Position numbers and translations under genes: made by a program
Part shown: positions 24,121-64,000 of the stretch, one piece after another
How positions within the stretch are numbered: the first letter of the stretch is position 1
How the letters are laid out: every line of letters begins with the position of its first letter
Notes under the pieces: model-generated
Seen by the model: the letters and a program-made list of their open reading frames with translations, nothing else
The model's database searches: none
What the model was told of the DNA's origin: nothing
Assembly: GCF_046105845.1 (NCBI RefSeq)
Contig: NZ_CP151004.1
DNA from: Escherichia coli
GTDB taxonomy: Bacteria; Pseudomonadota; Gammaproteobacteria; Enterobacterales; Enterobacteriaceae
DNA: 64,000 nucleotides
Strand: one strand, 5' to 3'

Positions 24121-24129
24121 GTTTCTCAT

Positions 24130-36069: not shown

Positions 36070-36169
36070 TTCGTGGCGGCACCATTATATTCTGAATATG
36101 TAAGATCGAAGGCTGTTCCGTTCACTTGATGTTCCTCGCTACTATGGAACGCTCAAGCCGGTGAACGTG

Positions 36170-36198: not shown

Positions 36199-36303
36199 CA
36201 ACCCGGACCCACACCCCCGCTGTGATGTCCGTTTACCACAGACAATGCTTCATTGCTGAAGTTGTAAGGCGTTACGCAGCATTGGGTAAAATGGCCGATA
36301 CCA

Positions 36304-37887: not shown

Positions 37888-38048
37888 AGTAAGTACAAAA
37901 CCTATTCGTTGTATGACAAATGTCACAATTCGATCATGGATAAATCGGGGCAAAAATGCAATGTTGCAGCACTATTTATCTCATATTATTTGAGGTTTAT
38001 AACCTCACATTATCCCTGAATTAAAAGTGGTAATAATAAAACATTATT

Positions 38049-38327: not shown

Positions 38328-38366
38328 CAGTGTATTGGTAGCTAAAAAGCCAGGGGCGGTAGCGTG
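38328..38366 (+). promoter_or_regulatory. JUMPStart element with ops site (GGCGGTAGCGTG at 38355-38366) in the wza 5' leader; RfaH recruitment site
   Basis: Seen in sequence: cagtgtattggtagctaaaaagccaggggcggtagcgtg. The ops core matches GGCGGTAGnnTG exactly, and the 3' end of the element is shared with the rfb JUMPStart at 62406-62444. Confidence 0.8.
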
Positions 38367-38544: not shown

Positions 38545-39684
38545 ATGATGAAATCCAAAATGAAATTGATGCCATTATTGGTGTCAGTAACCTTGATAAG
38601 CGGTTGCACAGTACTTCCGGGCAGCAATATGTCGACGATGGGTAAAGACGTCATCAAACAGCAGGACGCTGATTTCGATCTCGACAAAATGGTGAATGTT
38701 TATCCGTTGACCCCGCGCCTGATTGATCAATTACGACCACGCCCGAATGTAGCGCGCCCCAATATGACGCTGGAAAGTGAGATCGCGAATTATCAGTATC
38801 GCGTCGGGCCGGGGGACGTTCTTAATGTCACCGTCTGGGATCACCCGGAACTCACCACGCCAGCCGGTCAGTACCGCAGCTCCAGCGACGCCGGCAACTG
38901 GGTACAGCCTGACGGCACTATGTTTTACCCGTATATCGGCAAGGTTCACGTCGTGGGGAAAACGCTCGCTGAAATCCGCAGTGATATTACCGGGCGCTTA
39001 GCGACGTACATCGCTGACCCGCAGGTGGACGTTAATATCGCCGCCTTCCGCTCGCAAAAAGCCTATATCTCCGGTCAGGTGAATAAATCCGGTCAACAGG
39101 CCATCACCAACGTGCCACTGACCATTCTTGATGCCATCAACGCCGCAGGTGGCCTGACCGACACCGCTGACTGGCGCAACGTAGTGCTAACACACAATGG
39201 TCGTGAAGAGCGCATTTCTTTGCAGGCGCTGATGCAAAACGGCGACCTCAATCAGAACCGACTGCTTTACCCCGGCGATATTCTCTACGTGCCGCGTAAT
39301 GATGATCTGAAAGTGTTTGTGATGGGTGAAGTGAAGAAACAGAGCACCCTGAAAATGGACTTTAGCGGCATGACCCTGACTGAAGCCCTTGGTAATGCTG
39401 AAGGCATCGACATGACCACCTCCAACGCCAGCGGCATCTTTGTCATTCGTCCGCTGAAAGGCGAGGGTGGGCGTAACGGCAAGATTGCCAATATCTACCA
39501 GCTGGATATGTCCGATGCCACGTCGCTGGTGATGGCGACAGAATTCCGCCTGCAACCTTATGACGTGGTGTATGTCACCACCGCCCCGGTTTCCCGCTGG
39601 AATCGTCTGATCAATCAGTTGCTGCCAACTATTAGCGGTGTCCGTTACATGACGGATACAGCCAGCGACATTCATAACTGGTAA
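38545..39684 (+). CDS. wza: Outer-membrane polysaccharide export lipoprotein (OPX family)
   Basis: 379-aa ORF with lipoprotein signal (LISGC). Confidence 0.93.
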
Positions 39685-43721: not shown

Positions 43722-44935
43722 ATATTCTGCAATTTAATGTGCGATTGGCGGAAGGCGGGGCGGCAGGTGTGGCGTTAGATCTCCACCAGCGTGCGCTGCA
43801 ACAGGGGCTGGCGTCACATTTTGTCTACGGTTACGGCAAAGGCGGCAAAGAGAGCGTCAGCCATCAGAACTATCCGCAGGTCATCAAACATACGCCGCGG
43901 ATGACCGCGATGGCGAACATTGCCCTGTTTCGTCTGTTTAATCGCGATCTGTTTGGCAATTTCAATGAGTTATATCGCATCATTACTCGCACAGCGGGTC
44001 CGGTGGTCCTGCATTTTCATGTGCTGCACAGCTACTGGCTAAATCTTAAGAGCGTGGTGCGCTTTTGCGAAAAAGTGAAATACCATAAACCGGATGTCAC
44101 TCTGGTCTGGACGCTGCACGACCACTGGAGCGTTACCGGACGCTGCGCCTTTACCGACGGTTGTGAAGGCTGGAAAAAGGGCTGCCAGAAATGCCCGACC
44201 TTAAATAATTATCCGCCGGTGAAGATTGATCGCGCGCACCAACTGGTGGCGGGCAAACGCCAGTTATTCCGCGAGATGCTGGCACTGGGCTGTCAGTTTA
44301 TTTCCCCCAGCCAGCATGTGGCTGATGCTTTCAATAGTCTGTACGGTCCAGGGCGTTGCCGGATTATCAATAATGGCATTGATATGGCAACCGAAGCGAT
44401 TCTGGCGGATCTGCCTCCGGTGCGCGAAACTCAGGGCAAGCCGAAAATCGCGGTGGTAGCGCATGACCTGCGTTACGACGGCAAGACTAACCAGCAACTG
44501 GTGCGTGAGATGATGGCGCTGGGCGACAAAATCGAACTGCATACCTTTGGTAAGTTCTCGCCGTTCACCGCTGGCAACGTGGTTAATCACGGCTTTGAAA
44601 CTGACAAGCGCAAGTTGATGAGCGCGCTCAATCAGATGGATGCGCTGGTATTCAGTTCTCGCGTCGATAACTACCCGCTAATTTTGTGTGAGGCGCTATC
44701 GATTGGCGTGCCGGTGATTGCCACCCATAGCGACGCGGCGCGGGAAGTGCTGCAAAAATCCGGCGGTAAAACCGTCAGTGAAGAAGACGTGCTGCAACTG
44801 GTCCAGTTAAGCAAACCGGAAATCGCGCAGGCGGTATTTGGTACCACGCTGGCTGAGTTCAGCCAACGCAGCCGTGCCGCCTACAGTGGACAACAGATGC
44901 TGGAGGAGTATGTCAACTTCTATCAGAATCTGTAG
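43718..44935 (+). CDS. wcaC: Colanic acid biosynthesis glycosyltransferase (GT1/GT4)
   Basis: 405-aa ORF; start overlaps the wcaB stop. Confidence 0.9.
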   Translation: MNILQFNVRLAEGGAAGVALDLHQRALQQGLASHFVYGYGKGGKESVSHQNYPQVIKHTPRMTAMANIALFRLFNRDLFGNFNELYRIITRTAGPVVLHFHVLHSYWLNLKSVVRFCEKVKYHKPDVTLVWTLHDHWSVTGRCAFTDGCEGWKKGCQKCPTLNNYPPVKIDRAHQLVAGKRQLFREMLALGCQFISPSQHVADAFNSLYGPGRCRIINNGIDMATEAILADLPPVRETQGKPKIAVVAHDLRYDGKTNQQLVREMMALGDKIELHTFGKFSPFTAGNVVNHGFETDKRKLMSALNQMDALVFSSRVDNYPLILCEALSIGVPVIATHSDAAREVLQKSGGKTVSEEDVLQLVQLSKPEIAQAVFGTTLAEFSQRSRAAYSGQQMLEEYVNFYQNL

Positions 44936-46127
44936 CTACCTGCTGCTGCCGCTGATCTACCTGCTGGTTAACGTCAAAATCGCCCAGCTTGGCGAAAGTT
45001 TTCCCATCACCATCGTCACTTTTTTACCTGTCTTGTTACTGCTTTTTTTAGAGCGCATCAGCGTTAAAAAATTGATGATTGCCTTAGGGATTGGTGCGGG
45101 ACTCACGGCGTTTAACTACCTGTTTGGTCAGTCGTTGGATGCCAGTAAATACGTCACTTCAACCATGCTGTTTGTCTATATTGTGATCATTATTGGCATG
45201 GTGTGGAGTATTCGCTTTAAAACGATTTCGCCCCACAACCACCGCAAGATATTACGCTTTTTTTATCTGGTGGTCGGGTTGGTGGTGGCGCTGGCGGCGG
45301 TGGAGATGGCGCAAATTATCCTCACCGGTGGCAGCAGTATTATGGAGTCGATTTCGAAATATCTGATTTACAGCAACAGCTATGTGCTGAATTTCATTAA
45401 ATTCGGCGGTAAGCGCACGACAGCACTTTATTTCGAACCGGCATTTTTCGCTCTGGCATTAATCTCAATTTGGCTCAGCATCAAACAGTTTGGTATCAAA
45501 ACGCCTAAAACCGATGCTATGATTCTCGCAGGGATAATATTATCCGGATCGTTTTCAGGGGTTATGACCTTTATCCTGTTTTATTTGCTGGAGTGGGCAT
45601 TTCAATATCTGAATAAAGAGGCGATTAAGAAAAAGTTACCGTTAGCATTGATTTCTCTGGCTGTATTCCTGGTTGGTGTGGTAATTGCATTTCCTTATAT
45701 TTCCACCCGTCTGGGCGATTTAGGTACGGAAGGATCGTCATCATATTATCGTATTGTCGGTCCGCTGGTGATGGTCGGTTATTCTTTGACCCATATTGAC
45801 GGTGTAGTCAGATTTGGCTCACTTTATGAATATGTCGCATCATTCGGAATATTTAACGGTGCGGATGTCGGAAAAACCATAGACAATGGTTTGTATCTGC
45901 TGATTATTTATTTTTCCTGGTTCGCGGTGTTTTTATCACTGTGGTACATAGGGAAAGTGATAAAAATGATGATCAACGCTTTTGGTGATAACCGCAATTT
46001 TCGCGTGCAATTATATCTTTTTACTCCGGTATCGCTGTTTTTTACCGGTTCGATATTTAGCCCGGAATATGCATTTTTAATCGTCTGTCCGTTTATTTTG
46101 CGAAAAGCGTTAAATATTACGAGGTAA
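44910..46127 (+). CDS. wcaD: Colanic acid polymerase (Wzy-type polytopic membrane protein)
   Basis: ORF track starts at 44838; start set at the ATG at 44910 ([15 protein letters not shown]), 405 aa; overlaps the wcaC 3' end by 26 nt. Confidence 0.85.
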
Positions 46128-46137
46128 GAATAAGAAC

Positions 46138-46884
46138 ATGTTGCTTAGCATAATCACTGTCGCGTTTCGTAACCTCGCAGGGATAGTCAAAACACACGCC
46201 TCGCTGGCGCATCTGGCGCAGGCGGACGATATCAGCTTCGAATGGATTGTTGTCGATGGCGGTTCCAATGACGGCACCCGTGAGTACCTGGAAAATCTCA
46301 AGGGTATCTATAACCTACGCTTTGTCAGCGAGCCAGATAACGGTATCTACGACGCCATGAACAAAGGCATTGCGATGGCACAAGGCAAGTTCGCGTTGTT
46401 TCTCAACTCAGGTGATATTTTTCATCAGGATGCCGCAAATTTTGTCCGTAAGTTAAAAGTACAAAAAGATAACGTGATGATCACTGGCGATGCGCTGCTG
46501 GATTTTGGCGACGGGCATAAAATTAAACGTAGCGCCAAACCGGGCTGGTATATTTATCACAGCCTGCCCGCCAGTCATCAGGCGATATTTTTCCCGGTAT
46601 CCGGCTTGAAAAAATGGCGTTATGACCTGGAATATAAAGTTTCTTCCGATTACGCGCTGGCAGCCAAAATGTATAAAGCCGGTTATGCATTTAAAAAACT
46701 CAATGGCCTGGTGTCTGAATTTTCTATGGGTGGAGTATCTACCACCAATAATATGGAATTGTGTGCTGACGCCAAAAAAGTCCAACGGCAGATATTACAT
46801 GTGCCTGGCTTCTGGGCAGAATTATCCTGGCATTTACGCCAGCGTACGACGGGTAAGACTAAAGCCTTATATAACAAAGTCTAA
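46138..46884 (+). CDS. wcaE: Colanic acid biosynthesis glycosyltransferase (GT2)
   Basis: 248-aa ORF; cluster position. Confidence 0.9.
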
Positions 46885-46899
46885 ATATAAGGAATACCA

Positions 46900-47448
46900 A
46901 TGCAAGATTTAAGCGGTTTCTCGGTGCCGAAAGGGTTCCGGGGCGGCAACGCTATTAAAGTGCAATTGTGGTGGGCAGTACAGACAACATTATTTGCCTG
47001 GTCGCCACAAGTATTGTATCGCTGGCGGGCTTTTTTATTACGTTTATTCGGCGCAAAAATAGGAAAAAACGTAGTTATTCGTCCGTCAGTAAAAATTACC
47101 TATCCGTGGAAATTAACCTTAGGTGATTACGCGTGGGTCGGCGATGAGGTCAATTTATATACCCTCGGTGAAATAACCATTGGCGCACATTCGGTGATAT
47201 CGCAAAAAAGTTATTTATGCACCGGGAGCCACGACCATGCAAGTCAACATTTCACCATTAACGCCACGCCTATTGTGATTGGCGAGAAATGCTGGCTGGC
47301 GACAGATGTTTTTGTTGCCCCAGGCGTCACGATTGGCGACGGCACCGTCGTGGGTGCACGAAGCAGTGTTTTTAAATCGCTTCCGGCAAATGTGGTTTGC
47401 CGGGGGAATCCCGCAGTGGTGATACGCGAACGCGTTGAAACTGAATAA
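46900..47448 (+). CDS. wcaF: Colanic acid biosynthesis acetyltransferase (hexapeptide-repeat)
   Basis: 182-aa ORF. Confidence 0.9.
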   Translation: MQDLSGFSVPKGFRGGNAIKVQLWWAVQTTLFAWSPQVLYRWRAFLLRLFGAKIGKNVVIRPSVKITYPWKLTLGDYAWVGDEVNLYTLGEITIGAHSVISQKSYLCTGSHDHASQHFTINATPIVIGEKCWLATDVFVAPGVTIGDGTVVGARSSVFKSLPANVVCRGNPAVVIRERVETE

Positions 47449-47474
47449 ATTCAAAAAATATAGAGGAATAAGAC

Positions 47475-48596
47475 ATGTCAAAAGTCGCTCTCATCACCGG
47501 TGTAACCGGACAAGACGGTTCTTACCTGGCAGAGTTTCTGCTGGAAAAAGGTTACGAGGTGCATGGTATTAAGCGTCGCGCATCGTCATTCAACACCGAG
47601 CGCGTGGATCACATTTATCAGGATCCGCACACCTGCAACCCGAAATTCCATCTGCATTATGGCGACCTGAGTGATACCTCCAACCTGACGCGCATTTTGC
47701 GTGAAGTGCAGCCGGATGAAGTGTACAACCTGGGCGCAATGAGCCACGTTGCGGTTTCTTTTGAGTCACCGGAATATACCGCAGACGTCGATGCGATGGG
47801 TACGCTGCGCTTGCTCGAGGCGATCCGCTTCCTCGGTCTGGAAAAGAAAACCCGTTTTTATCAGGCTTCTACCTCTGAACTGTACGGTCTGGTGCAGGAA
47901 ATTCCGCAGAAAGAAACCACGCCGTTCTACCCGCGATCTCCGTATGCAGTCGCCAAACTGTACGCCTACTGGATCACCGTTAACTACCGCGAATCCTACG
48001 GCATGTATGCCTGTAACGGTATTCTCTTCAACCATGAATCCCCGCGCCGCGGCGAAACCTTCGTTACCCGCAAAATCACCCGCGCAATCGCCAACATCGC
48101 CCAGGGGCTGGAATCGTGCCTGTACCTCGGCAATATGGATTCCCTGCGTGACTGGGGCCATGCCAAAGACTACGTAAAAATGCAGTGGATGATGCTGCAA
48201 CAGGAACAACCGGAAGATTTCGTAATTGCTACCGGCGTTCAGTACTCCGTGCGTCAGTTCGTAGAAATGGCGGCGGCACAGTTGGGTATCAAACTGCGTT
48301 TTGAAGGCACGGGTGTTGAAGAGAAGGGCATTGTGGTTTCCGTCACCGGGCATGACGCGCCGGGCGTTAAACCGGGTGATGTGATTATCGCCGTTGATCC
48401 GCGTTACTTCCGTCCGGCTGAAGTTGAAACGCTGCTCGGTGACCCGACCAAAGCGCACGAAAAACTGGGCTGGAAACCGGAAATCACCCTCAGAGAGATG
48501 GTGTCTGAAATGGTGGCTAATGACCTCGAAGCGGCGAAAAAACACTCTCTGCTGAAATCTCACGGCTACGACGTGGCGATCGCGCTGGAGTCATAA
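47475..48596 (+). CDS. gmd: GDP-mannose 4,6-dehydratase
   Basis: 373-aa SDR-family ORF ([13 protein letters not shown]-binding motif). Confidence 0.95.
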
Positions 48597-48598
48597 GC

Positions 48599-49564
48599 AT
48601 GAGTAAACAACGCATTTTTATTGCTGGCCATCGCGGGATGGTCGGTTCCGCCATCAGGCGGCAGCTCGAACAGCGCGGTGATGTGGAACTGGTATTACGC
48701 ACCCGCGACGAGCTGAACCTGCTGGACAGCCGCGCTGTGCATGATTTCTTTGCCAGCGAAAGCATTGACCAGGTCTATCTGGCGGCGGCGAAAGTGGGCG
48801 GCATTGTTGCCAACAACACGTATCCGGCGGATTTCATCTACCAGAACATGATGATTGAGAGCAACATCATTCACGCCGCGCATCAGAACGACGTGAACAA
48901 ACTGCTGTTTCTCGGATCGTCCTGTATCTACCCGAAACTGGCAAAACAGCCGATGGCAGAAAGCGAGTTATTGCAGGGTACGCTGGAGCCGACCAACGAG
49001 CCTTACGCCATTGCCAAAATCGCCGGGATCAAACTGTGCGAATCTTACAACCGCCAGTATGGACGCGATTACCGCTCGGTCATGCCGACCAACCTGTACG
49101 GGCCACACGACAACTTCCATCCGAGTAATTCGCATGTGATCCCTGCATTGCTGTGTCGCTTCCACGAGGCGACGGCACAGAATGCGCCGGACGTGGTGGT
49201 GTGGGGCAGTGGTACACCGATGCGCGAATTTCTGCATGTCGATGATATGGCGGCGGCGAGCATTCATGTGATGGAGCTGGCGCATGAAGTCTGGCTGGAG
49301 AACACCCAGCCGATGCTGTCGCACATTAACGTCGGCACGGGCGTTGACTGCACTATCCGCGAGCTGGCGCAAACCATCGCCAAAGTGGTGGGTTACAAAG
49401 GTCGGGTGGTTTTTGATGCCAGCAAACCGGATGGCACGCCGCGCAAACTGCTGGATGTGACGCGCCTGCATCAGCTTGGCTGGTATCACGAAATCTCACT
49501 GGAAGCGGGGCTTGCCAGCACTTACCAGTGGTTCCTTGAGAATCAAGACCGCTTTCGGGGGTAA
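48599..49564 (+). CDS. fcl: GDP-L-fucose synthase (GDP-4-keto-6-deoxymannose 3,5-epimerase/4-reductase)
   Basis: 321-aa ORF ([10 protein letters not shown]). Confidence 0.95.
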
Positions 49565-49566
49565 TG

Positions 49567-50046
49567 ATGTTTTTACGTCAGGAAGACTTTGCCACGGTAG
49601 TGCGCTCCACTCCGCTTGTCTCTCTCGACTTTATTGTCGAGAACAGTCGCGGCGAGTTTCTGCTTGGCAAAAGAACCAACCGCCCGGCGCAGGGTTACTG
49701 GTTTGTGCCGGGAGGGCGCGTGCAAAAAGACGAAACGCTGGAAGCCGCATTTGAGCGGCTGACGATGGCGGAACTGGGGCTGCGTCTGCCGATAACAGCA
49801 GGCCAGTTTTACGGTGTCTGGCAGCACTTTTATGACGATAACTTCTCCGGCACGGATTTCACCACTCACTATGTGGTGCTCGGTTTTCGCTTCAGAGTCG
49901 CGGAAGAAGAGCTGTTACTGCCGGATGAGCAGCATGACGATTACCGCTGGCTGACGCCGGACGCGCTGCTCGCCAGTGACGATGTTCACGCTAACAGCCG
50001 CGCCTATTTTCTCGCTGAGAAGCGTGCCGGAGTACCCGGATTATGA
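49567..50046 (+). CDS. gmm: GDP-mannose mannosyl hydrolase (Nudix)
   Basis: ORF 49564..50046 begins MMFLRQ; second ATG chosen (159 aa), with 49564 as alternative. Confidence 0.9.
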
Positions 50047-51266
50047 AAATACTGGTCTACGGCATTAACTACTCGCCGGAGTTAACCGGCATCGGCAAAT
50101 ACACCGGAGAGATGGTGGAATGGCTTGCGGCACAAGGTCATGAGGTGCGGGTCATTACCGCACCGCCTTACTACCCGCAGTGGCAGGTGGGCGAGAACTA
50201 TTCCGCCTGGCGGTACAAACGAGAAGAGGGGGCCGCCACGGTGTGGCGCTGCCCGCTGTACGTGCCAAAACAGCCAAGCACCCTGAAACGCCTGTTGCAT
50301 CTCGGCAGTTTTGCCGCCAGCAGTTTCTTTCCTCTGATGGCGCAACGTCGCTGGAAGCCGGATCGCATTATCGGCGTGGTGCCAACGCTGTTTTGCACGC
50401 CGGGAATGCGCCTGCTGGCGAAACTCTCTGGTGCGCGTACCGTGCTGCATATTCAGGATTACGAAGTGGACGCCATGCTGGGGCTGGGCCTTGCCGGAAA
50501 AGGCAAAGGCGGCAAAGTGGCACATCTGGCGACGGCGTTCGAACGTAGCGGACTGCATAACGTTGATAACGTCTCCACGATTTCGCGTTCGATGATGAAT
50601 AAAGCCATCGAAAAAGGCGTGGCGGCGGAAAATGTCATCTTCTTCCCCAACTGGTCGGAAATTGCCCGTTTTCAGCATGTCGCAGAGGCCGATGTTGATG
50701 CCCTTCGTAACCAGCTTGGCCTGCCGGATAACAAAAAAATCATTCTTTACTCCGGCAATATTGGTGAAAAGCAGGGGCTGGAAAACGTTATTGAAGCTGC
50801 CGATCGCCTGCGTGATGAACCGCTGATTTTTGCCATTGTCGGGCAGGGCGGCGGCAAAGCGCGGCTGGAAAAAATGGCGCAGCAGCGTGGACTGCACAAC
50901 ATGCAATTTTTTCCGCTGCAATCGTATGACGCTTTACCCGCACTGCTGAAGATGGGCGATTGCCATCTGGTAGTGCAAAAACGCGGCGCGGCAGATGCCG
51001 TATTGCCGTCGAAACTGACCAATATTCTGGCGGTAGGTGGTAACGCGGTGATTACCGCAGAGGCCCACACAGAACTGGGGCAGCTTTGCGAAACCTTTCC
51101 GGGCATTGCGGTTTGCGTAGAACCGGAATCGGTCGAGGCGCTGGTTGCGGGGATCCGTCAGGCGCTCCTGCTGCCCAAACACAACACGGTGGCACGTGAA
51201 TATGCCGAACGCACGCTCGATAAAGAGAACGTGTTACGTCAATTTATAAATGATATTCGGGGATAA
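50043..51266 (+). CDS. wcaI: Colanic acid biosynthesis glycosyltransferase (GT1/GT4)
   Basis: 407-aa ORF. Confidence 0.9.
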
Positions 51267-51268
51267 TT

Positions 51269-52705
51269 ATGGCGCAGTCGAAACTCTATCCAGTTGTGAT
51301 GGCAGGTGGCTCCGGTAGCCGCTTATGGCCGCTTTCCCGCGTACTTTACCCCAAGCAGTTTTTATGCCTGAAAGGCGATCTCACCATGCTGCAAACCACC
51401 ATCTGTCGCCTGAACGGTGTGGAGTGCGAAAGCCCGGTGGTGATTTGCAATGAGCAGCACCGCTTTATTGTCGCGGAACAGCTGCGTCAACTGAACAAAC
51501 TCACCGAGAACATTATTCTCGAACCGGCAGGGCGTAACACTGCACCTGCCATTGCGCTGGCGGCGCTGGCGGCAAAACGTCATAGCCCGGAGAACGACCC
51601 ATTAATGCTGGTGCTGGCGGCGGATCATGTGATTGCCGATGAAGACGCATTCCGTGCCGCCGTGCGTAATGCCATGCCGTATGCCGAAGCGGGCAAGCTG
51701 GTGACCTTCGGCATTGTGCCGGATCTACCTGAAACCGGATATGGCTATATTCGTCGCGGTGAAGTGTCGGCGGGTGAGCAGGATACGGTGGCCTTTGAAG
51801 TGGCGCAGTTTGTCGAAAAACCGAATCTGGAAACTGCGCAGGCCTATGTGGCAAGCGGCGAATATTACTGGAACAGCGGTATGTTCCTGTTCCGTGCCGG
51901 ACGCTATCTCGAAGAACTGAAAAAATATCGCCCGGATATTCTCGATGCCTGTGAAAAAGCGATGAGCGCCGTCGATCCGGATCTCGATTTTATTCGTGTG
52001 GATGAAGAGGCGTTTCTGGCCTGCCCGGAAGAGTCGGTGGATTACGCGGTCATGGAACGCACGGCAGATGCCGTTGTGGTGCCAATGGATGCGGGCTGGA
52101 GCGATGTCGGTTCCTGGTCTTCATTATGGGAGATCAGCGCCCACACCGCCGAGGGCAACGTTTGTCACGGCGATGTGATTAATCATAAAACTGAAAACAG
52201 CTATGTGTACGCCGAATCTGGCCTGGTCACCACCGTCGGGGTGAAAGATCTGGTGGTGGTGCAGACCAAAGATGCGGTGCTGATTGCAGACCGTAACGCG
52301 GTACAGGATGTGAAAAAAGTGGTCGAGCAGATCAAAGCCGACGGTCGCCATGAGCATCGGGTGCATCGCGAAGTGTATCGCCCGTGGGGCAAATATGACT
52401 CTATTGACGCGGGCGACCGCTATCAGGTGAAACGCATCACCGTGAAACCGGGCGAAGGCTTGTCGGTACAGATGCATCATCACCGCGCGGAACACTGGGT
52501 GGTTGTCGCAGGAACGGCAAAAGTCACCATTGATGGTGATATCAAACTGCTTGGTGAAAACGAGTCGATTTATATTCCGCTGGGGGCGACGCACTGCCTG
52601 GAAAACCCGGGGAAAATTCCGCTCGATTTAATTGAAGTGCGCTCCGGCTCTTATCTCGAAGAGGATGATGTGGTGCGCTTCGCGGATCGCTACGGACGGG
52701 TGTAG
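51269..52705 (+). CDS. cpsB: Mannose-1-phosphate guanylyltransferase
   Basis: 478-aa ORF ([24 protein letters not shown]). Confidence 0.95.
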
Positions 52706-52806
52706 CAGTTGCATAATCAACCGGATTAATTCTTCGGTAAATAACGACAAAAACAAAATTGGCCGCTTCGGTCAGGGCCAACTATTGCCTGAAAAAGGGT
52801 AACGAT

Positions 52807-54177
52807 ATGAAAAAATTAACCTGCTTTAAAGCCTATGATATTCGCGGAAAACTAGGCGAAGAACTGAATGAGGATATTGCCTGGCGCATTGGTCGCGCTT
52901 ATGGCGAATTTCTCAAACCGAAAACCATTGTGTTAGGCGGTGATGTCCGCCTCACCAGCGAAACCTTAAAACTGGCGCTGGCGAAAGGTTTACAGGACGC
53001 GGGCGTCGATGTGCTGGATATTGGCATGTCCGGCACCGAAGAGATCTATTTCGCCACGTTCCATCTCGGCGTGGATGGCGGCATTGAAGTTACCGCCAGC
53101 CATAACCCGATGGATTACAACGGCATGAAACTGGTGCGCGAAGGGGCTCGCCCGATTAGCGGCGATACCGGACTGCGCGACGTCCAGCGTCTGGCAGAAG
53201 CCAATGACTTCCCTCCTGTCGATGAAACCAAACGCGGTCGCTATCAGCAAATCAATCTGCGTGACGCTTACGTTGATCACCTGTTCGGTTATATCAACGT
53301 CAAAAACCTCACGCCGCTCAAGCTGGTGATCAACTCCGGGAACGGCGCAGCAGGTCCGGTGGTGGACGCCATCGAAGCCCGCTTTAAAGCCCTCGGCGCA
53401 CCGGTGGAAATGATCAAAGTGCACAACACGCCGGACGGCAATTTCCCCAACGGTATTCCTAACCCGCTGCTGCCGGAATGCCGCGACGACACCCGTAATG
53501 CGGTCATCAAACACGGCGCGGATATGGGCATTGCCTTTGATGGCGATTTTGACCGCTGTTTCCTGTTTGACGAAAAAGGGCAGTTTATCGAGGGCTACTA
53601 CATTGTCGGCCTGCTGGCAGAAGCGTTCCTCGAAAAAAATCCCGGTGCGAAGATCATCCACGATCCGCGTCTCTCCTGGAACACCATCGATGTGGTGACT
53701 GCCGCAGGCGGCACCCCGGTAATGTCGAAAACCGGACACGCCTTTATTAAAGAACGTATGCGCAAGGAAGACGCCATCTACGGTGGCGAAATGAGCGCCC
53801 ACCACTATTTCCGTGATTTCGCTTACTGCGACAGCGGCATGATCCCATGGCTGCTGGTAGCCGAACTGGTGTGCCTGAAAGGAAAAACGCTGGGCGAACT
53901 GGTGCGCGACCGGATGGCAGCATTTCCGGCAAGCGGTGAGATCAACAGCAAACTGGCGCAACCCGTTGAGGCGATTAACCGCGTGGAACAGCATTTTAGC
54001 CGTGAGGCGCTGGCGGTGGATCGCACCGATGGCATCAGCATGACCTTTGCCGACTGGCGCTTTAATCTGCGCTCCTCCAACACCGAACCGGTGGTGCGGT
54101 TGAATGTGGAATCGCGCGGTGATGTACCGCTGATGGAAGCGCGAACGCGAACTCTGCTGACGTTGCTGAACGAGTAA
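52807..54177 (+). CDS. cpsG: Phosphomannomutase
   Basis: ORF track starts at 52759; start set at the ATG at 52807 ([14 protein letters not shown]), 456 aa; active-site TASHNP motif present. Confidence 0.93.
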
Positions 54178-54230
54178 TGTCGGATCTTCCCTTCCCCCAC
54201 TGCGGGTAGGGGCTAATAACAGGAACAACG

Positions 54231-55625
54231 ATGACAAATCTAAAAAAGCGCGAGCGAGCGAAAACCAATGCATCGTTAATCTCTATGGTGCAACGCTTTT
54301 CAGATATCACCATCATGTTTGCCGGACTATGGCTGGTTTGCGAAGTGAGCGGACTGTCATTCCTCTACATGCACCTGTTGGTGGCGCTGATTACGCTGGT
54401 GGTATTCCAGATGCTGGGTGGCATCACCGATTTTTATCGCTCATGGCGCGGTGTTCGGGCAGCGACAGAATTTGCTCTGTTGCTACAAAACTGGACCTTA
54501 AGCGTGATTTTCAGCGCCGGACTGGTGGCGTTCAACAATGATTTCGACACGCAACTGAAAATCTGGCTGGCGTGGTATGGGCTGACCAGCATCGGACTGG
54601 TGGTTTGCCGTTCATGTATTCGCATTGGGGCGGGCTGGCTGCGTAATCATGGCTATAACAAGCGTATGGTCGCCGTAGCGGGGGATTTAGCCGCCGGACA
54701 AATGCTGATGGAGAGCTTCCGTAATCAGCCGTGGTTAGGGTTTGAAGTGGTGGGCGTATACCACGACCCAAAACTGGGCGGCGTTTCTAACGACTGGGCG
54801 GGCAATCTGCAACAGCTGGTCGAGGATGCGAAAGCGGGCAAGATTCATAACGTCTATATCGCGATGCAAATGTGCGACGGCGCACGAGTGAAAAAACTGG
54901 TCCATCAACTGGCGGATACCACCTGTTCGGTGCTGCTGATCCCCGATGTCTTTACCTTCAACATTCTCCATTCACGTCTCGAAGAGATGAACGGTGTTCC
55001 GGTGGTGCCGCTTTACGACACGCCGCTTTCCGGGGTTAACCGCCTGCTCAAACGTGCGGAAGATATTGTGCTGGCGACGCTTATTCTGCTGCTGATCTCC
55101 CCGGTGCTGTGCTGTATTGCTCTGGCGGTAAAACTCAGTTCACCAGGGCCGGTTATTTTTCGCCAGACTCGCTACGGCATGGATGGCAAACCGATCAAAG
55201 TGTGGAAGTTCCGTTCGATGAAAGTGATGGAGAACGACAAAGTGGTGACTCAGGCGACGCAGAACGATCCGCGCGTCACCAAAGTGGGGAACTTTCTGCG
55301 CCGCACCTCGCTGGATGAACTGCCGCAGTTTATCAATGTGCTTACCGGGGGGATGTCGATTGTGGGTCCACGTCCACACGCGGTGGCGCATAACGAACAG
55401 TATCGCCAGCTCATTGAAGGCTACATGCTGCGCCATAAGGTGAAACCGGGCATTACCGGCTGGGCGCAGATTAATGGCTGGCGCGGCGAAACCGACACGC
55501 TGGAGAAAATGGAAAAACGCGTCGAGTTCGACCTTGAGTACATCCGCGAATGGAGCGTCTGGTTCGATATCAAAATCGTTTTCCTGACGGTATTCAAAGG
55601 CTTCGTTAACAAAGCGGCATATTGA
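54231..55625 (+). CDS. wcaJ: UDP-glucose:undecaprenyl-phosphate glucose-1-phosphate transferase
   Basis: 464-aa ORF with N-terminal TM segments and C-terminal sugar-transferase domain. Confidence 0.93.
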   Translation: MTNLKKRERAKTNASLISMVQRFSDITIMFAGLWLVCEVSGLSFLYMHLLVALITLVVFQMLGGITDFYRSWRGVRAATEFALLLQNWTLSVIFSAGLVAFNNDFDTQLKIWLAWYGLTSIGLVVCRSCIRIGAGWLRNHGYNKRMVAVAGDLAAGQMLMESFRNQPWLGFEVVGVYHDPKLGGVSNDWAGNLQQLVEDAKAGKIHNVYIAMQMCDGARVKKLVHQLADTTCSVLLIPDVFTFNILHSRLEEMNGVPVVPLYDTPLSGVNRLLKRAEDIVLATLILLLISPVLCCIALAVKLSSPGPVIFRQTRYGMDGKPIKVWKFRSMKVMENDKVVTQATQNDPRVTKVGNFLRRTSLDELPQFINVLTGGMSIVGPRPHAVAHNEQYRQLIEGYMLRHKVKPGITGWAQINGWRGETDTLEKMEKRVEFDLEYIREWSVWFDIKIVFLTVFKGFVNKAAY

Positions 55626-55626
55626 T

Positions 55627-57105
55627 ATGAGCTTACGTGAAAAAACCATCAGCGGCGCGAAGTGGTCGGCGATTGCCACGGTGATCATCATCGGCCTCGG
55701 GTTGGTGCAGATGACCGTGCTGGCGCGGATTATCGACAACCACCAGTTCGGCCTGCTTACCGTGTCTCTGGTGATTATCGCGCTGGCAGATACGCTTTCT
55801 GACTTCGGTATCGCTAACTCCATTATTCAGCGAAAAGAAATCAGCCACCTTGAACTCACCACGTTGTACTGGCTGAACGTCGGGCTGGGGATCGTGGTGT
55901 GCGTGGCGGTGTTTTTGTTGAGTGATCTCATCGGCGACATGCTGAATAACCCGGACCTGGCACCGTTGATTAAAACATTGTCGCTGGCGTTTGTGGTGAT
56001 CCCCCACGGGCAGCAGTTCCGCGCGTTGATGCAGAAGGAGCTGGAGTTCAACAAAATCGGCATGATCGAAACCAGCGCGGTGCTGGCGGGCTTCACTTTT
56101 ACGGTGGTTAGCGCCCATTTCTGGCCGCTGGCGATGACCGCGATCCTCGGTTATCTGGTCAATAGTGCGGTAAGAACGCTGCTGTTTGGCTACTTTGGCC
56201 GCAAAATTTATCGCCCTGGTCTGCAGTTCTCGCTGGCGTCGGTGGCACCGAACTTACGCTTTGGTGCCTGGCTGACGGCGGACAGCATCATCAACTATCT
56301 CAACACCAACCTTTCAACACTCGTGCTGGCGCGTATTCTCGGCGCGGGCGTGGCAGGGGGATACAACCTGGCGTACAACGTGGCCGTTGTGCCACCGATG
56401 AAGCTGAACCCAATCATCACCCGCGTGTTGTTTCCGGCGTTTGCCAAAATTCAGGACGACACCGAAAAGTTGCGCGTCAACTTCTACAAGCTGCTGTCGG
56501 TGGTGGGGATTATCAACTTTCCGGCGCTGCTGGGGCTGATGGTGGTGTCGAATAACTTTGTACCGCTGGTCTTTGGTGAGAAGTGGAACAGCATTATTCC
56601 GGTGCTGCAATTGCTGTGTGTGGTGGGGCTGCTGCGCTCAGTGGGTAACCCGATTGGTTCGCTGCTGATGGCGAAAGCGCGGGTCGATATCAGCTTTAAA
56701 TTCAACGTATTCAAAACCTTTCTGTTTATTCCGGCGATTGTTATTGGTGGGCAGATGGCGGGCGCAATCGGCGTCACGCTTGGCTTCCTGCTAGTGCAGA
56801 TTATCAACACCATTCTGAGCTATTTCGTGATGATTAAACCGGTGCTCGGTTCCAGTTATCGCCAGTACATCCTGAGTTTACGGCTGCCGTTTTATCTCTC
56901 GCTGCCGACGCTGGTGGTCAGTTATGCGCTGGGCATTGTGCTGAAAGGGCAACTGGCGCTGGGGATGCTGCTGGCGGTGCAAATAGCCGCGGGCGTGCTG
57001 GCGTTTGTAGTGATGATTGTGCTGTCGCGCCATCCGCTGGTGGTGGAAGTGAAGCGTCAGTTTTGTCGCAGCGAAAAAATGAAAATGCTTTTACGGGCGG
57101 GGTGA
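55627..57105 (+). CDS. wzxC: Colanic acid repeat-unit flippase (Wzx/MOP family)
   Basis: 492-aa polytopic membrane ORF. Confidence 0.92.
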   Translation: MSLREKTISGAKWSAIATVIIIGLGLVQMTVLARIIDNHQFGLLTVSLVIIALADTLSDFGIANSIIQRKEISHLELTTLYWLNVGLGIVVCVAVFLLSDLIGDMLNNPDLAPLIKTLSLAFVVIPHGQQFRALMQKELEFNKIGMIETSAVLAGFTFTVVSAHFWPLAMTAILGYLVNSAVRTLLFGYFGRKIYRPGLQFSLASVAPNLRFGAWLTADSIINYLNTNLSTLVLARILGAGVAGGYNLAYNVAVVPPMKLNPIITRVLFPAFAKIQDDTEKLRVNFYKLLSVVGIINFPALLGLMVVSNNFVPLVFGEKWNSIIPVLQLLCVVGLLRSVGNPIGSLLMAKARVDISFKFNVFKTFLFIPAIVIGGQMAGAIGVTLGFLLVQIINTILSYFVMIKPVLGSSYRQYILSLRLPFYLSLPTLVVSYALGIVLKGQLALGMLLAVQIAAGVLAFVVMIVLSRHPLVVEVKRQFCRSEKMKMLLRAG

Positions 57106-57176
57106 ATGGTTGTTTTAGGCTACGGCAATAAAAACAACAACATAACCTCACCTGGCATCAAATTTATGAGGAAAAA

Positions 57177-58457
57177 ATGAAATTACTTATTCTGGGTAAC
57201 CACACTTGCGGCAACCGCGGCGACAGCGCCATCCTGCGCGGCTTACTTGATGCCATCAACATCCTCAATCCACACGCCGAAGTGGACGTAATGAGCCGCT
57301 ATCCGGTCAGTTCTTCCTGGCTGCTCAACCGCCCGGTGATGGGCGATCCGCTGTTCCTGCAAATGAAACAACACAACAGCGCGGCGGGCGTTGTCGGGCG
57401 CGTTAAAAAAGTCCTCCGTCGCCGCTATCAGCACCAGGTATTGCTCTCACGCGTCACCGACACTGGCAAGCTGCGTAATATCGCGATCGCCCAGGGATTC
57501 ACTGACTTCGTGCGCCTGCTGTCAGGTTACGACGCCATTATTCAGGTCGGCGGATCGTTTTTTGTCGATCTCTACGGCGTGCCGCAGTTTGAGCACGCGC
57601 TTTGCACATTTATGGCGAAAAAGCCGCTGTTTATGATTGGTCACAGCGTCGGCCCCTTCCAGGATGAGCAATTTAACCAACTGGCGAACTACGTTTTTGG
57701 TCACTGTGACGCGCTGATCCTGCGCGAGTCGGTTAGCCTCGATCTAATGAAACGCAGCAATATCACCACTGCAAAAGTGGAACATGGCGTCGATACCGCG
57801 TGGCTGGTCGATCACCACACCGAAGATTTCACCGCCAGCTATGCCGTTCAACACTGGCTGGACGTTGCCGCACAACAGAAAACGGTGGCAATTACCCTGC
57901 GCGAACTGGCACCGTTCGACAAACGCCTCGGCACCACTCAACAAGCGTATGAAAAAGCCTTTGCCGGGGTGGTCAATCGCATTCTCGATGAAGGGTATCA
58001 GGTGATTGCGCTTTCCACCTGTACGGGCATCGACAGCTATAACAAAGACGACCGCATGGTGGCGCTCAACCTGCGCCAGCACATCAGCGATCCTGCCCGT
58101 TACCACGTGGTGATGGATGAACTCAACGATCTGGAAATGGGCAAAATTCTTGGTGCCTGTGAACTCACCGTCGGTACGCGCCTGCACTCCGCCATTATCT
58201 CAATGAACTTTGCCACTCCGGCGATTGCCATCAACTATGAACATAAATCCGCCGGGATTATGCAGCAGCTGGGGCTGCCAGAGATGGCGATTGATATCCG
58301 TCATTTACTGGACGGCAGCTTACAAGCGATGGTTGCGGATACCTTAGGCCAACTTCCGGCGCTGAACGCACGACTTAGCGAAGCCGTCAGTCGCGAACGT
58401 CAGACGGGAATGCGGATGGTGCAATCTGTGCTTGAACGCATTGGGGAGGCGAAATGA
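57177..58457 (+). CDS. wcaK: Colanic acid biosynthesis pyruvyl transferase
   Basis: 426-aa ORF. Confidence 0.9.
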   Translation: MKLLILGNHTCGNRGDSAILRGLLDAINILNPHAEVDVMSRYPVSSSWLLNRPVMGDPLFLQMKQHNSAAGVVGRVKKVLRRRYQHQVLLSRVTDTGKLRNIAIAQGFTDFVRLLSGYDAIIQVGGSFFVDLYGVPQFEHALCTFMAKKPLFMIGHSVGPFQDEQFNQLANYVFGHCDALILRESVSLDLMKRSNITTAKVEHGVDTAWLVDHHTEDFTASYAVQHWLDVAAQQKTVAITLRELAPFDKRLGTTQQAYEKAFAGVVNRILDEGYQVIALSTCTGIDSYNKDDRMVALNLRQHISDPARYHVVMDELNDLEMGKILGACELTVGTRLHSAIISMNFATPAIAINYEHKSAGIMQQLGLPEMAIDIRHLLDGSLQAMVADTLGQLPALNARLSEAVSRERQTGMRMVQSVLERIGEAK

Positions 58458-59674
58458 AGGTCGGCTTCTTTTTACTGAAATTTCCGCTGTCTTCGGAAAC
58501 CTTCGTCCTCAACCAAATCACTGCGTTTATTGATATGGGCTTTGAGGTGGAGATTGTCGCGCTGCAAAAAGGCGATACAGAGAACACCCACGCGGCATGG
58601 ACGAAATACAACCTTGCCGCCAGAACCCGCTGGTTACAGGACGAACCTACGGGCAAAGTGGCGAAGCTGCGCCACCGAGTCAGTCAGACCTTACGCGGCA
58701 TTCATCGTAAAAATACCTGGCAGGCGCTCAACCTCAAACGCTATGGCGCAGAGTCGCGGAATCTGATTTTGTCTGCCATTTGCGGCCAGGTCGCAACACC
58801 GTTTCGCGCCGATGTGTTCATCGCTCATTTTGGTCCAGCGGGGGTAACCGCAGCAAAACTCCGCGAACTGGGTGTCATTCGCGGCAAAATTGCCACTATC
58901 TTCCACGGCATTGATATCTCCAGTCGGGAAGTTCTCAACCACTACACCCCCGAATATCAACAACTGTTTCGCCGTGGCGACCTGATGCTACCGATAAGCG
59001 ATCTGTGGGCCGGAAGGCTGCAAAAAATGGGCTGCCCGAGGGAAAAAATCGCCGTATCGCGCATGGGCGTGGACATGACGCGCTTTAGCCCGCGTCCGGT
59101 GAAAGCGCCCGCAACACCGCTGGAAATCATTTCCGTCGCACGCTTAACCGAGAAAAAAGGCCTGCATGTGGCGATCGAAGCCTGCCGTCAGTTGAAAGAG
59201 CAGGGCGTGGCATTTCGCTATCGCATCCTCGGCATTGGCCCGTGGGAACGACGCCTGCGCACCCTCATCGAACAATATCAACTGGAAGATGTGGTAGAGA
59301 TGCCAGGCTTTAAACCGAGCCATGAAGTGAAAGAGATGCTCGATGACGCGGATGTCTTCCTGTTGCCATCGGTAACGGGCGCGGATGGCGATATGGAAGG
59401 TATTCCGGTGGCACTAATGGAAGCGATGGCGGTCGGCATTCCGGTTGTTTCCACTCTGCATAGCGGAATACCGGAACTGGTGGAGGCCGATAAATCCGGC
59501 TGGCTGGTGCCTGAGAACGATGCTCGCGCACTGGCGCAACGACTGGCGGCGTTTAGCCAACTGGACACCGACGAATTGGCTCCGGTCGTCAAACGCGCGC
59601 GCGAAAAAGTTGAACACGATTTTAACCAGCAGGTGATCAATCGAGAACTCGCCAGCTTGCTGCAGGCTTTATAG
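58454..59674 (+). CDS. wcaL: Colanic acid biosynthesis glycosyltransferase (GT1/GT4)
   Basis: 406-aa ORF; start overlaps the wcaK stop. Confidence 0.9.
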
Positions 59675-59684
59675 AGGAGAACGT

Positions 59685-61079
59685 ATGCCATTTAAAAAAC
59701 TCTCCCGACGCACCTTCCTGACGGCAAGCTCGGCGCTTGCCTTCCTCCATACCCCTTTCGCTCGCGCACTTCCCGCCCGACAAAGCGTTAACATTAACGA
59801 CTACAACCCTCACGACTGGATCGCCTCATTTAAACAAGCCTTCAGCGAAGGGCAAACGGTCGTCGTGCCTGCCGGATTCGTTTGTGACAATATCAACACC
59901 GGCATCTTCATCCCTCCCGGCAAAACGTTACACATTCTTGGAAGCTTGCGCGGCAACGGCAGAGGGCGATTTGTCTTACAGGACGGCAGCCAGGTGACAG
60001 GGGAGGAGGGCGGCAGTATGCATAACATCACCCTGGATGTGCGTGGTTCTGACTGCACCATCAAAGGGCTGGCGATGAGCGGCTTTGGTCCGGTAACGCA
60101 GATTTATATCGGCGGCAAAAACAAACGGGTCATGCGCAACCTGACCATCGATAACCTGAACGTTAGCCACGCTAATTACGCCATCTTACGCCAGGGATTT
60201 CATAACCAGATTATCGGTGCCAACATCACCAATTGTAAGTTCAGCGACTTACAGGGCGACGCCATTGAATGGAACGTGGCAATTAACGACAGTGATATTT
60301 TGATCTCCGACCACATCATCGAGCGCATCAACTGTACTAACGGAAAAATCAACTGGGGCATCGGCATAGGCCTTGCGGGGAGTACTTATGATAATAACTA
60401 CCCGGAAGACCAGACAGTGAAAAACTTTGTCGTGGCGAATATCACGGGATCGGATTGTCGGCAGTTGATACATGTTGAAAATGGTAAACATTTTGTTATT
60501 CGTAATATCAAAGCCCGCAATATCACACCGGATTTCAGTAAGAAAGCAGGTATTGATAACGCCACGGTCGCTATTTACGGTTGTGACAATTTCGTGATTG
60601 ATAATATTGAAATGATTAATAGCGCCGGGATGTTAATCGGCTATGGGGTAATTAAAGGCAAATATCTCTCGATACCGCAAAATTTCCGAGTGAATAATAT
60701 TCAACTGGATAATACCCACCTTGCTTATAAATTGCGCGGCATCCAAATCTCTGCCGGGAATGCCGTCTCCTTTGTGGCACTGACTAACATTGAGATGAAG
60801 CGTGCCTCGCTTGAGCTACACAATAAACCGCAACACCTTTTTATGCGTAATATCAAAGTGATGCAGGAATCCTCTGTTGGACCAGCATTGAGCATGAACT
60901 TCGACATGCGCAAAGACGTACGAGGTGTCTTTATGGCGAAAAAAGAAACACTGCTGTCACTTGCAAATGTTCATGCGGTGAATGAAAGAGGGCAAAGCTC
61001 AGTCGATATCGACAGGATTAATCACCATATTGTTAATGTGGAAAAGATTAACTTTAGATTGCCGGAACGGAGGGAGTAG
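59685..61079 (+). CDS. wcaM: Colanic acid biosynthesis protein WcaM (secreted, beta-helix-like)
   Basis: 464-aa ORF with Tat-like/signal N-terminus ([13 protein letters not shown]). Confidence 0.9.
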
Positions 61080-61253
61080 ATTTGCGACCATTCCTGGAAA
61101 AATGGAGCCATACTTAGGAACAATGCTACAGCAATCCACAACGAAGCGGCGTAACATCACAAGTAATTCAGTAATCAATTCAGGGTAATTGATGCTGGCG
61201 AAAAAAATCGAACAAGCTATAATTCAGCAACCATTTTACAGGTGGATGAAATA

Positions 61254-62147
61254 ATGACGAATTTAAAAGCAGTTATTCCTGTAGCGGGTCTTGGGATGCA
61301 TATGTTGCCTGCCACTAAGGCGATTCCCAAAGAGATGCTACCGATCGTCGACAAGCCAATGATTCAGTACATTGTTGACGAGATCGTGGCTGCAGGGATC
61401 AAAGAAATCCTCCTGGTAACTCACGCGTCCAAGAACGCAGTCGAAAACCACTTCGACACCTCTTATGAATTAGAATCTCTCCTTGAACAGCGCGTGAAGC
61501 GTCAGCTGCTGGCGGAAGTACAGTCCATTTGCCCGCCGGGCGTGACCATTATGAACGTGCGTCAGGGCGAACCTTTAGGTTTGGGCCACTCCATTTTATG
61601 TGCACGACCTGCTATTGGTGACAACCCATTTGTCGTGGTGCTGCCAGACGTTGTGATTGACGACGCCAGCGCCGACCCGCTGCGCTACAACCTTGCTGCC
61701 ATGATTGCGCGCTTCAACGAAACGGGCCGCAGCCAGGTGCTGGCAAAACGTATGCCGGGTGACCTCTCTGAATACTCTGTCATCCAGACCAAAGAGCCGC
61801 TGGACCGCGAAGGTAAAGTCAGCCGCATTGTTGAATTCATCGAAAAACCGGATCAGCCGCAGACGCTGGACTCAGACATCATGGCCGTTGGTCGCTATGT
61901 GCTTTCTGCCGATATTTGGCCGGAACTTGAACGCACTCAGCCAGGTGCATGGGGACGTATTCAGCTGACTGATGCCATTGCCGAACTGGCGAAAAAACAG
62001 TCTGTTGACGCCATGCTGATGACTGGTGACAGCTACGACTGCGGTAAAAAAATGGGCTATATGCAGGCATTTGTGAAGTATGGACTACGCAACCTCAAAG
62101 AAGGGGCGAAGTTCCGTAAAGGGATTGAGAAGCTGTTAAGCGAATAA
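61254..62147 (+). CDS. galF: UTP-glucose-1-phosphate uridylyltransferase regulatory subunit
   Basis: ORF track starts at 61242; start set at the ATG at 61254 ([30 protein letters not shown]), 297 aa. Confidence 0.93.
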
Positions 62148-62187
62148 TGAAAATCTGACCGGATGTAACGGTTGATAAGAAAATTAT

Positions 62188-62248
62188 AACGGCAGTGAAG
62201 ATTCGCGGCGAAAGTAATTTGTTGCGAATATTCCTGCCGTTATTTTAT
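62188..62248 (+). terminator. Candidate galF terminator: long stem-loop (aacggcag...ctgccgtt) followed by a T-rich tract
   Basis: Seen in sequence: outer 8-bp stem with inner attcgc/gcgaat stem, followed by attttat. Confidence 0.35.
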
Positions 62249-62405
62249 ATAAACAATCAGAATAACAACGAGTTAGCAATAGGATTTTAGTCAAAGTTTT
62301 CCAGGATTTTCCTTGTTTCCAGAGCGGATTGGTAAGACAATTAGCGTTTGAATTTTTCGAGTTAAGCGCGAGTGGGTAACGCTCGTCACATCGTAGACAT
62401 GCATG

Positions 62406-62444
62406 CAGTGCTCTGGTAGCTGTAAAGCCAGGGGCGGTAGCGTG
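62406..62444 (+). promoter_or_regulatory. JUMPStart element with ops site (GGCGGTAGCGTG at 62433-62444) in the rfb operon leader
   Basis: Seen in sequence: cagtgctctggtagctgtaaagccaggggcggtagcgtg; matches the JUMPStart consensus as I recall it, and the ops core is exact. Confidence 0.85.
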
Positions 62445-62519
62445 CATTAATACCTCTATTAATCAAACTGAGAGCCGCTTATTTCACAGCATGCTCTGAA
62501 GTAATATGGAATAAATTAA

Positions 62520-63605
62520 GTGAAAATACTTGTTACTGGTGGCGCAGGATTTATTGGTTCTGCTGTAGTTCGTCACATTATAAATAATACGCAGGATAGT
62601 GTTGTTAATGTCGATAAATTAACGTACGCCGGAAACCTGGAATCACTTGCTGATGTTTCTGATTCTGAACGCTATGTTTTTGAACATGCGGATATTTGCG
62701 ATGCAGCTGCAATGGCGCGGATTTTTGCTCAGCATCAGCCGGATTCAGTGATGCACCTGGCTGCTGAAAGCCATGTTGACCGTTCAATTACAGGTCCTGC
62801 GGCATTTATTGAAACCAATATTGTTGGTACTTATGTCCTTTTGGAAGCGGCTCGCAATTACTGGTCTGCTCTTGATGGCGACAAGAAAAATAGCTTCCGT
62901 TTTCATCATATTTCTACTGACGAAGTCTATGGTGATTTGCCTCATCCTGACGAAGTAAATAATAAAGAACAATTACCCCTCTTTACTGAGACGACAGCTT
63001 ACGCGCCTAGTAGTCCTTATTCCGCATCAAAAGCATCCAGCGATCATTTAGTCCGCGCGTGGAAACGTACCTATGGTTTACCGACCATTGTGACTAATTG
63101 CTCTAACAATTATGGTCCTTATCATTTCCCGGAAAAATTGATTCCACTAGTAATTCTTAATGCTCTGGAAGGTAAGGCATTACCTATTTATGGCAAAGGG
63201 GATCAAATTCGTGACTGGCTGTATGTTGAAGATCATGCGCGTGCGTTATATACCGTCGTAACCGAAGGTAAAGCGGGTGAAACTTATAACATTGGTGGGC
63301 ACAACGAAAAGAAAAACATTGATGTAGTGCTCACTATTTGTGATTTGCTGGATGAGATTGTACCGAAAGATAAATCTTACCGCGAGCAAATTACTTATGT
63401 TGCCGATCGTCCGGGACACGATCGCCGTTATGCGATTGATGCTGAGAAGATTGGTCGCGAATTGGGATGGAAACCACAGGAAACGTTTGAGAGCGGGATT
63501 CGGAAGACAGTGGAATGGTACCTGTCCAATACAAAATGGGTTGATAATGTGAAAAGTGGTGCCTATCAATCGTGGATTGAACAGAACTATGAGGGCCGCC
63601 AGTAA
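62520..63605 (+). CDS. rmlB: dTDP-glucose 4,6-dehydratase
   Basis: 361-aa ORF with GTG start; SDR motif TGGAGFIGS; first gene after the JUMPStart element. Confidence 0.93.
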
Positions 63606-64000
63606 TGAATATCCTCCTTTTTGGCAAAACAGGGCAGGTAGGTTGGGAGCTACAGCGTGCTCTGGCACCGCTGGGTAATTTGATTGCTCTTGATGTTCAC
63701 TCCACTGATTGCTGTGGTGATTTTAGTAATCCTGAAGGTGTAGCTGAAACCGTAAGAAGCATTCGGCCTGATATTATTGTCAACGCAGCCGCCCACACCG
63801 CAGTAGACAAAGCAGAATCAGAACCGGAGTTTGCACAATTACTTAACGCGACGAGTGTCGAAGCGATCGCGAAAGCAGCCAATGAAGTCGGCGCCTGGGT
63901 TATTCACTACTCTACTGACTACGTATTTCCGGGAACCGGTGAAATACCATGGCAGGAGGCGGATGCAACCGCACCGCTGAACGTTTATGGTGAAACCAAG
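63605..64000 (+). CDS. rmlD: dTDP-4-dehydrorhamnose reductase (partial, continues beyond the window end)
   Basis: ATG at 63605 overlaps the rmlB stop (TAATG). Translation [20 protein letters not shown]... runs to the window end with no stop; absent from the ORF track because it is truncated. Confidence 0.88.
   Translation, partial: MNILLFGKTGQVGWELQRALAPLGNLIALDVHSTDCCGDFSNPEGVAETVRSIRPDIIVNAAAHTAVDKAESEPEFAQLLNATSVEAIAKAANEVGAWVIHYSTDYVFPGTGEIPWQEADATAPLNVYGETK

Follow-up and report, generated by a model that had tools for sequence, protein, structure and literature searches.

In the Wzx/Wzy-dependent route to O antigen, synthesis of the repeat unit begins with WecA and is continued by glycosyltransferases; the unit is then flipped by Wzx and polymerised by Wzy before WaaL attaches the product to lipid A-core. 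The conserved gene galF flanks the O-antigen locus upstream. RmlB and RmlD carry out the second and the fourth step in the synthesis of dTDP-L-rhamnose, and the ops element is the loading site of RfaH, which curbs termination and polarity along the operon. In the described rfb cluster of Escherichia coli K-12 (O16), rmlC is followed by rfbX, glf, wbbH, wbbI, wbbJ, wbbK, and wbbL::IS5. Clusters of serogroup O48, such as that of strain VE-T2 (NZ_AP027960), have the gene order rmlBDAC, GT2, GT4, GT2-like, wzx, GT4, wzy, gne, gnd, and ugd, and the O48 antigen reportedly contains GalA (attributed to MacLean and colleagues, 2006). The O110 cluster, known from strain cM2a, has no rml genes; to judge from the title of a 2013 study cited in PMC7685785, GalA in the O110 antigen forms an amide with D-allothreonine.

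Here, the end of a 64,000-bp stretch of E. coli DNA (assembly GCF_046105845.1, contig NZ_CP151004.1; the whole stretch is referred to as the window) is compared with these systems. All positions are those of the window unless another sequence is named. The genes at the end of the window most probably represent the conserved 5' end of a Wzx/Wzy-dependent rfb cluster at the standard galF-gnd site, which would continue beyond the window as a distinct genotype related to O48; we assign this reading a probability of roughly 0.9.

The conserved upstream end of the cluster

The galF gene (61254–62147, plus strand) encodes 297 amino acids and matches the NCBIfam model TIGR01105 over its full length (positions 1–297; 689.2 bits, cutoff 659.2); its DNA is 95.0% identical to galF of K-12. 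Upstream of it lie the colanic-acid genes wcaK (57177–58457), wcaL (58454–59674), and wcaM (59685–61079), each of which was recognized in full length and above cutoff by an NCBIfam equivalog. The spacer between wzxC and wcaK varies among strains: it measures about 70 bp in the clone that matches the window, carries an inserted IS1397 in strain ETEC4085 (L013 6465–7813), and comprises about 660 bp without annotation in strain MP1 (L012, about 7370–8029).

Between galF and rmlB extends a non-coding leader of 372 bp (62148–62519, plus strand) that comprises the promoter region and the JUMPStart and is conserved across O types, with identities of 96.5–98.1% to K-12 (O16), an O48 strain, an O54 strain, and strain JNEC-KY203. 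The value for K-12 is 96.5% at the DNA level, and the final 72 bp are the same in both. The 39-bp JUMPStart, CAGTGCTCTGGTAGCTGTAAAGCCAGGGGCGGTAGCGTG (62406–62444, plus strand), is exact with 0 mismatches, where none is expected by chance, and it is unchanged across the five aligned strains (the window, K-12, O48, O54, and JNEC-KY203). Within it, and thus 5' of the first gene of the cluster, lies the ops element GGCGGTAGCGTG (62433–62444, plus strand), a match to the pattern GGCGGTAGNNTG, for which the window contains 2 matches versus 0.10 expected by chance. A second exact copy of GGCGGTAGCGTG is located at 38355–38366 (plus strand), approximately 180 bp 5' of an ORF of 379 amino acids (38545–39684) that we take to be wza from its position and length; this copy presumably belongs to the JUMPStart already known for the colanic-acid operon. 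A scan of the galF-rmlB leader for promoters and terminators gave no signal beyond chance, and the sigma-70 consensus was found at 1 site in the leader versus 1.1 expected, which is chance level. On the opposite strand, an ORF of 87 amino acids (62184–62447, minus strand) spans the leader including the JUMPStart and was also called as a gene in a Logan contig (L001 9665–9928). It had no match in a Pfam search and is in all likelihood a false gene call within conserved regulatory sequence.

The first gene of the cluster, rmlB (rfbB; 62520–63605, plus strand), has a GTG start and encodes a dTDP-glucose 4,6-dehydratase of 361 amino acids. The protein matches NF007490 over positions 1–361 of 361 (794.6 bits, cutoff 649) as well as TIGR01181 (510.9 bits, cutoff 365.1), and contains the SDR motifs GxxGxxG (GGAGFIG at residue 7) and YxxxK (YSASK at residue 167). 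Its stop codon overlaps by one base (63605) with the ATG of rmlD (rfbD), the gene of dTDP-4-dehydrorhamnose reductase, of which the window includes the first 132 of 299 codons (63605–64000, plus strand). The truncated fragment reaches 278.8 bits with NF007440 over profile positions 1–132 of 299, a score that falls under the cutoff of 308 because the gene is cut by the window end; the complete ORF of 299 amino acids is present in a contig identical to this part of the window (L001/L005, described below). The preliminary description, according to which rmlB and rmlD open an rfb cluster after galF and the JUMPStart, therefore holds, each of these elements having been found where it was placed there or right beside it. 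In this arrangement, transcription would start in the conserved leader, the ops element in the JUMPStart would load the antiterminator RfaH on RNA polymerase, and the long AT-rich operon could thereby be read to its end; rmlB and rmlD would be the first two of the four rmlBDAC genes that make dTDP-L-rhamnose.

Comparison with K-12 and the value of rmlB as a marker

In position, gene order, gene lengths, and JUMPStart/ops, the 5' end of the K-12 rfb cluster is the same as that described here. RmlB differs from RfbB of K-12 at 8 of 361 residues (40, 63, 76, 120, 149, 151, 284, and 314), corresponding to a protein identity of 97.8%; residues 1–39 are the same, and three of the differences lie within the first 100 residues. 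On the DNA level, rmlB shares 95.9% identity with K-12, and the rmlD fragment 90.9%. A departure of RmlB from the K-12 sequence had been remarked upon from the window alone, and this was correct, albeit modest in extent.

The further step of reading this divergence as a pointer to the O-antigen type fails. Among 5,426 complete E. coli genomes, the nearest matches to the region 62148–64000 are only 97.5% identical. The nearest rmlB-rmlD alleles occur in MP1 and ETEC4085, whose wzx/wzy genes are annotated as O54 and O138, respectively, while strains that share the same variable region at 99% have an rmlB that is only 96.6% identical. The rmlB differences are therefore uninformative on O type. 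O-antigen typing needs wzx and wzy, and the sequence of rmlB or rmlD is unsuitable for this purpose.

Gene content beyond the window

The genes downstream of position 64000 were taken from a contig identical to the end of the window and not from the source record itself. This contig (contig 140 of the Logan assembly SRR28309099; L001/L005) equals positions 52520–64000 over 11,481 bp at 100% identity and with no mismatch, and a second assembly, GCA_018015415.1, differs from this part of the window by one base. Since none of the 5,426 complete E. coli genomes exceeds 97.5% identity in this region, both belong to the clone from which the window comes or to one very closely related to it.

In L005, the order of genes is rmlB, rmlD, rmlA, rmlC, a GT2 glycosyltransferase (297 amino acids), a GT4 glycosyltransferase (347 amino acids), a GT2-like protein (260 amino acids), wzx (409 amino acids; Polysacc_synt_3, 31.7 bits, cutoff 23), an ATP-grasp gene (341 amino acids; L005 7946–8971), a distal GT4 glycosyltransferase (352 amino acids), wzy (373 amino acids; Wzy_C, 46.3 bits, cutoff 31.7), gne for a GalE/Gne-type 4-epimerase (335 amino acids; GalE/Gne, 447.7 bits), gnd (L005 12256–13662), and ugd. 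The cluster is thus placed between galF, inside the window, and gnd as its downstream flank in L005, and it contains both a flippase and a polymerase gene. As had been stated in the preliminary description, the type-determining genes lie outside the window: wzx and wzy were found only past position 64000, in the identical contig. The variable genes have a G + C content of about 30% compared with 52% for the window, which is typical of O-antigen clusters. A scan of Wzx, Wzy, and the ATP-grasp protein against NCBIfam retrieved no family at an E-value of 1e-5, and hence no type-specific model exists there for these three proteins. L005 ends after ugd; an SDR gene (uronate 4-epimerase-like) beside ugd is known from related strains only, being present in the O110 strain, the O48 strain, and JNEC-KY203.

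With the sequence extended to gnd and typed by wzx and wzy, as the preliminary description had proposed, the cluster proved to be related to O48 and not to O16. The K-12 genes rfbX (wzx), wbbH (wzy), glf, and wbbI-L are not found 3' of rmlC in the identical contig, where four glycosyltransferase genes, wzx, the ATP-grasp gene, wzy, and gne follow instead. The proposal of a non-K-12 O-antigen type was consequently right, by way of these downstream genes. Together with WecA, the four glycosyltransferases would produce a five-sugar repeat that may include rhamnose and GalNAc.

Relationship to O48

The 7.6-kb variable region has matches in 6 of the 5,426 complete E. coli genomes. Four of these belong to O48 strains, which share 85.5% DNA identity over 88% of the query, and O48 is the only named type that matched. 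Relative to O48, protein identities amount to 93.6% for the GT2 glycosyltransferase, 91.6% for the GT4 glycosyltransferase of 347 amino acids, 86.2% for the GT2-like protein, 78.1% for Wzx, 78.4% for the GT4 glycosyltransferase of 352 amino acids, 76.4% for Wzy, and 87.5% for Gne. The O48 cluster differs in that it has no ATP-grasp gene: in its place are 162 unrelated bp, versus 924 bp here that nearly coincide with the ATP-grasp gene, and homology with O48 returns 33 bp past the wzx stop and 14 bp short of the next gene. Judged by the sequences, this difference fits an insertion here and a deletion in O48 equally well.

A DNA identity of about 97% for wzx and wzy is reportedly what Iguchi and colleagues took in 2015 to denote the same O genotype. 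The values found here, 80.1% for wzx and 80.0% for wzy, fall well below it, and on sequence grounds the cluster is a distinct O genotype that is related to O48 and has one extra gene. Two UniProt entries, A0A6S6KQJ5 ("O-antigen polymerase") and A0A6S6KK80 ("Hypothtical protein"), are variants of Wzy and of the ATP-grasp protein, respectively, and belong to the same protein clusters at 90% identity. They look like parts of a hand-annotated, stand-alone cluster deposit, and because of this hand-worded annotation the genotype is probably in a catalogue by now, plausibly as one of the OgN genotypes. A search of the literature other than Iguchi 2020 (PMC7587089) and Nguyen 2021 (PMC8106712) revealed no description of an O48-like cluster.

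Carriers and mosaic history

The same cluster is carried by 2 of the 5,426 complete E. coli genomes, those of strains JNEC-KY203 (NZ_AP045179) and 2017.17.01CC (NZ_AP027822), with 99.0% identity over the 7.6-kb variable region, the ATP-grasp gene included. In JNEC-KY203 the central genes show DNA identities of 98.6–99.5%, whereas those of the flanks are lower (rmlB 96.6%, rmlD 96.1%, rmlA 94.7%, rmlC 97.5%, and gnd 96.3%). The central block is thus found on more than one chromosomal background. This is the usual pattern of a type-specific block that moves between backgrounds, its junctions lying within the rml genes and close to gnd.

An isolate that bears the label Escherichia fergusonii is also on record with nearly identical forms of Wzy, Wzx, and the ATP-grasp protein (EHG6171254.1, EHG6171501.1, and EHG6171500.1, respectively), which reflects either a transfer of the cluster across species or a mislabelled isolate. 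In the Logan assembly ERR4034258 of another carrier, the gene of the chain-length regulator wzzB is represented by two ORFs of 208 and 114 amino acids (L004 16573–17550) and is apparently interrupted.

With regard to the genomic background, the window segments 1–20000, 20001–38000, and 44000–64000 reach a maximum identity of 98.4% among the 5,426 complete E. coli genomes, and K-12, BL21, UTI89, and O157:H7 are about equally far from the window (96.7–97.1%). These values suggest a deep-branching lineage that is sparse among complete genomes, for example a strain resembling the Escherichia cryptic clades but labelled E. coli.

Alternative continuations of the cluster

Three other continuations of the rmlBD genes were weighed against the O48-related genotype. 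That the cluster would go on as the O16 rfb locus of K-12, with rfbX, glf, and wbbH-L, is suggested by its collinear 5' end with equal gene lengths and by the shared last 72 bp of the leader; the identity of rmlD has already dropped to 90.9%, and the contig that matches the last 11.5 kb of the window at 100% contains wholly different genes after rmlC, so that we give this continuation practically no credence. An assignment to serogroup O48 proper can draw on the shared gene order and on O48 being the sole named type matched (85.5% over 88%), but it is very improbable considering that wzx and wzy agree by only 80% on the DNA level and 76–78% on the protein level, far under the value of about 97%, that this cluster, unlike O48, has a gene of about 0.9 kb for an ATP-grasp protein, and that the wzx and wzy genes of JNEC-KY203 were not given serogroup-specific "O48 family" names by PGAP.

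It is just as improbable that the source genome departs from the SRR28309099 contig in the variable region owing to a recombination breakpoint located just past the window end. Central regions of O-antigen loci do move, as in JNEC-KY203, where the centre is 99% identical and rmlBDAC and gnd are 94.7–97.5% identical. Such a breakpoint is, however, hard to reconcile with 100% identity over 11,481 bp, given that the highest value for this region among the 5,426 genomes is 97.5%. A look-up of the exact RmlB sequence moreover returned 8 contigs, and in all 8 the downstream genes are the same as far as each contig extends. In addition, the exact sequences of RmlB, Wzx, the ATP-grasp protein, and Wzy occur in consecutive accessions (HFX4492412–HFX4492422 and WP_409023932–WP_409023941) with a common longest contig of 4,744,735 bp that is labelled E. 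coli.

A predicted carboxylate-amine ligase

The ATP-grasp gene lies between wzx and the gene of the distal GT4 glycosyltransferase. An AlphaFold model of its product, built from 36 homologues, had a pLDDT of 91.9, and a Foldseek search of the PDB with this model returned ArgX/LysX, RimK, and Ddl as best matches (probability 1.00, TM 0.5–0.6, E-values of 4e-13 and weaker). The protein also matched the Pfam family Dala_Dala_lig_C (25.2 bits, cutoff 24); a comparison with the PDB by sequence yielded marginal matches only (best E-value 0.0096). The model, the Foldseek matches, and the Pfam match agree in placing the protein in the ATP-grasp fold, and it is predicted to be a carboxylate-amine ligase.

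Outside its own cluster, the nearest homologues share 59–63% identity, the named ones being "hypothetical protein" entries from Enterobacter and Lelliottia, and remoter ones come from Aeromonas, Vibrio, and Shewanella; for the most part, homologues elsewhere are listed as hypothetical proteins. A further homologue is encoded in the O110 cluster of strain cM2a (WP_062874241.1; L014 8395–9390), with 32% identity over the full length and an E-value of 2e-37. The O110 cluster is otherwise unrelated, but its ATP-grasp gene likewise adjoins wzx within the O-antigen cluster, and there, too, an epimerase gene is found beside ugd.

From this distant homology and the O110 structure we infer that the ATP-grasp enzyme may amidate a uronic acid of the repeat unit, which would set the antigen apart from that of O48. 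The carboxyl group of the uronic acid, probably GalA, would then be linked to an amino acid or amine. The complete proposal, according to which a member of an uncharacterised ATP-grasp family attaches an amino acid through an amide to a uronic acid (probably GalA) of an O48-like backbone, is a tentative one, to which we assign distinctly less than even odds.

Implications

The part of the locus inside the window is the well-known conserved front of the rfb operon and has little import beyond annotation. The type-specific part represents a rare, O48-related genotype that is already present in public genomes and that standard O1–O188 schemes would miss or mis-call. The ATP-grasp gene is a reasonable candidate for an O-antigen amidation enzyme and may be of modest value for serotyping and glycobiology; its uncharacterised family is the sole mildly novel thread in this locus. 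If the proposed function is true, it would reveal which enzyme family forms the amides between amino acids and uronic acids in enterobacterial O antigens.
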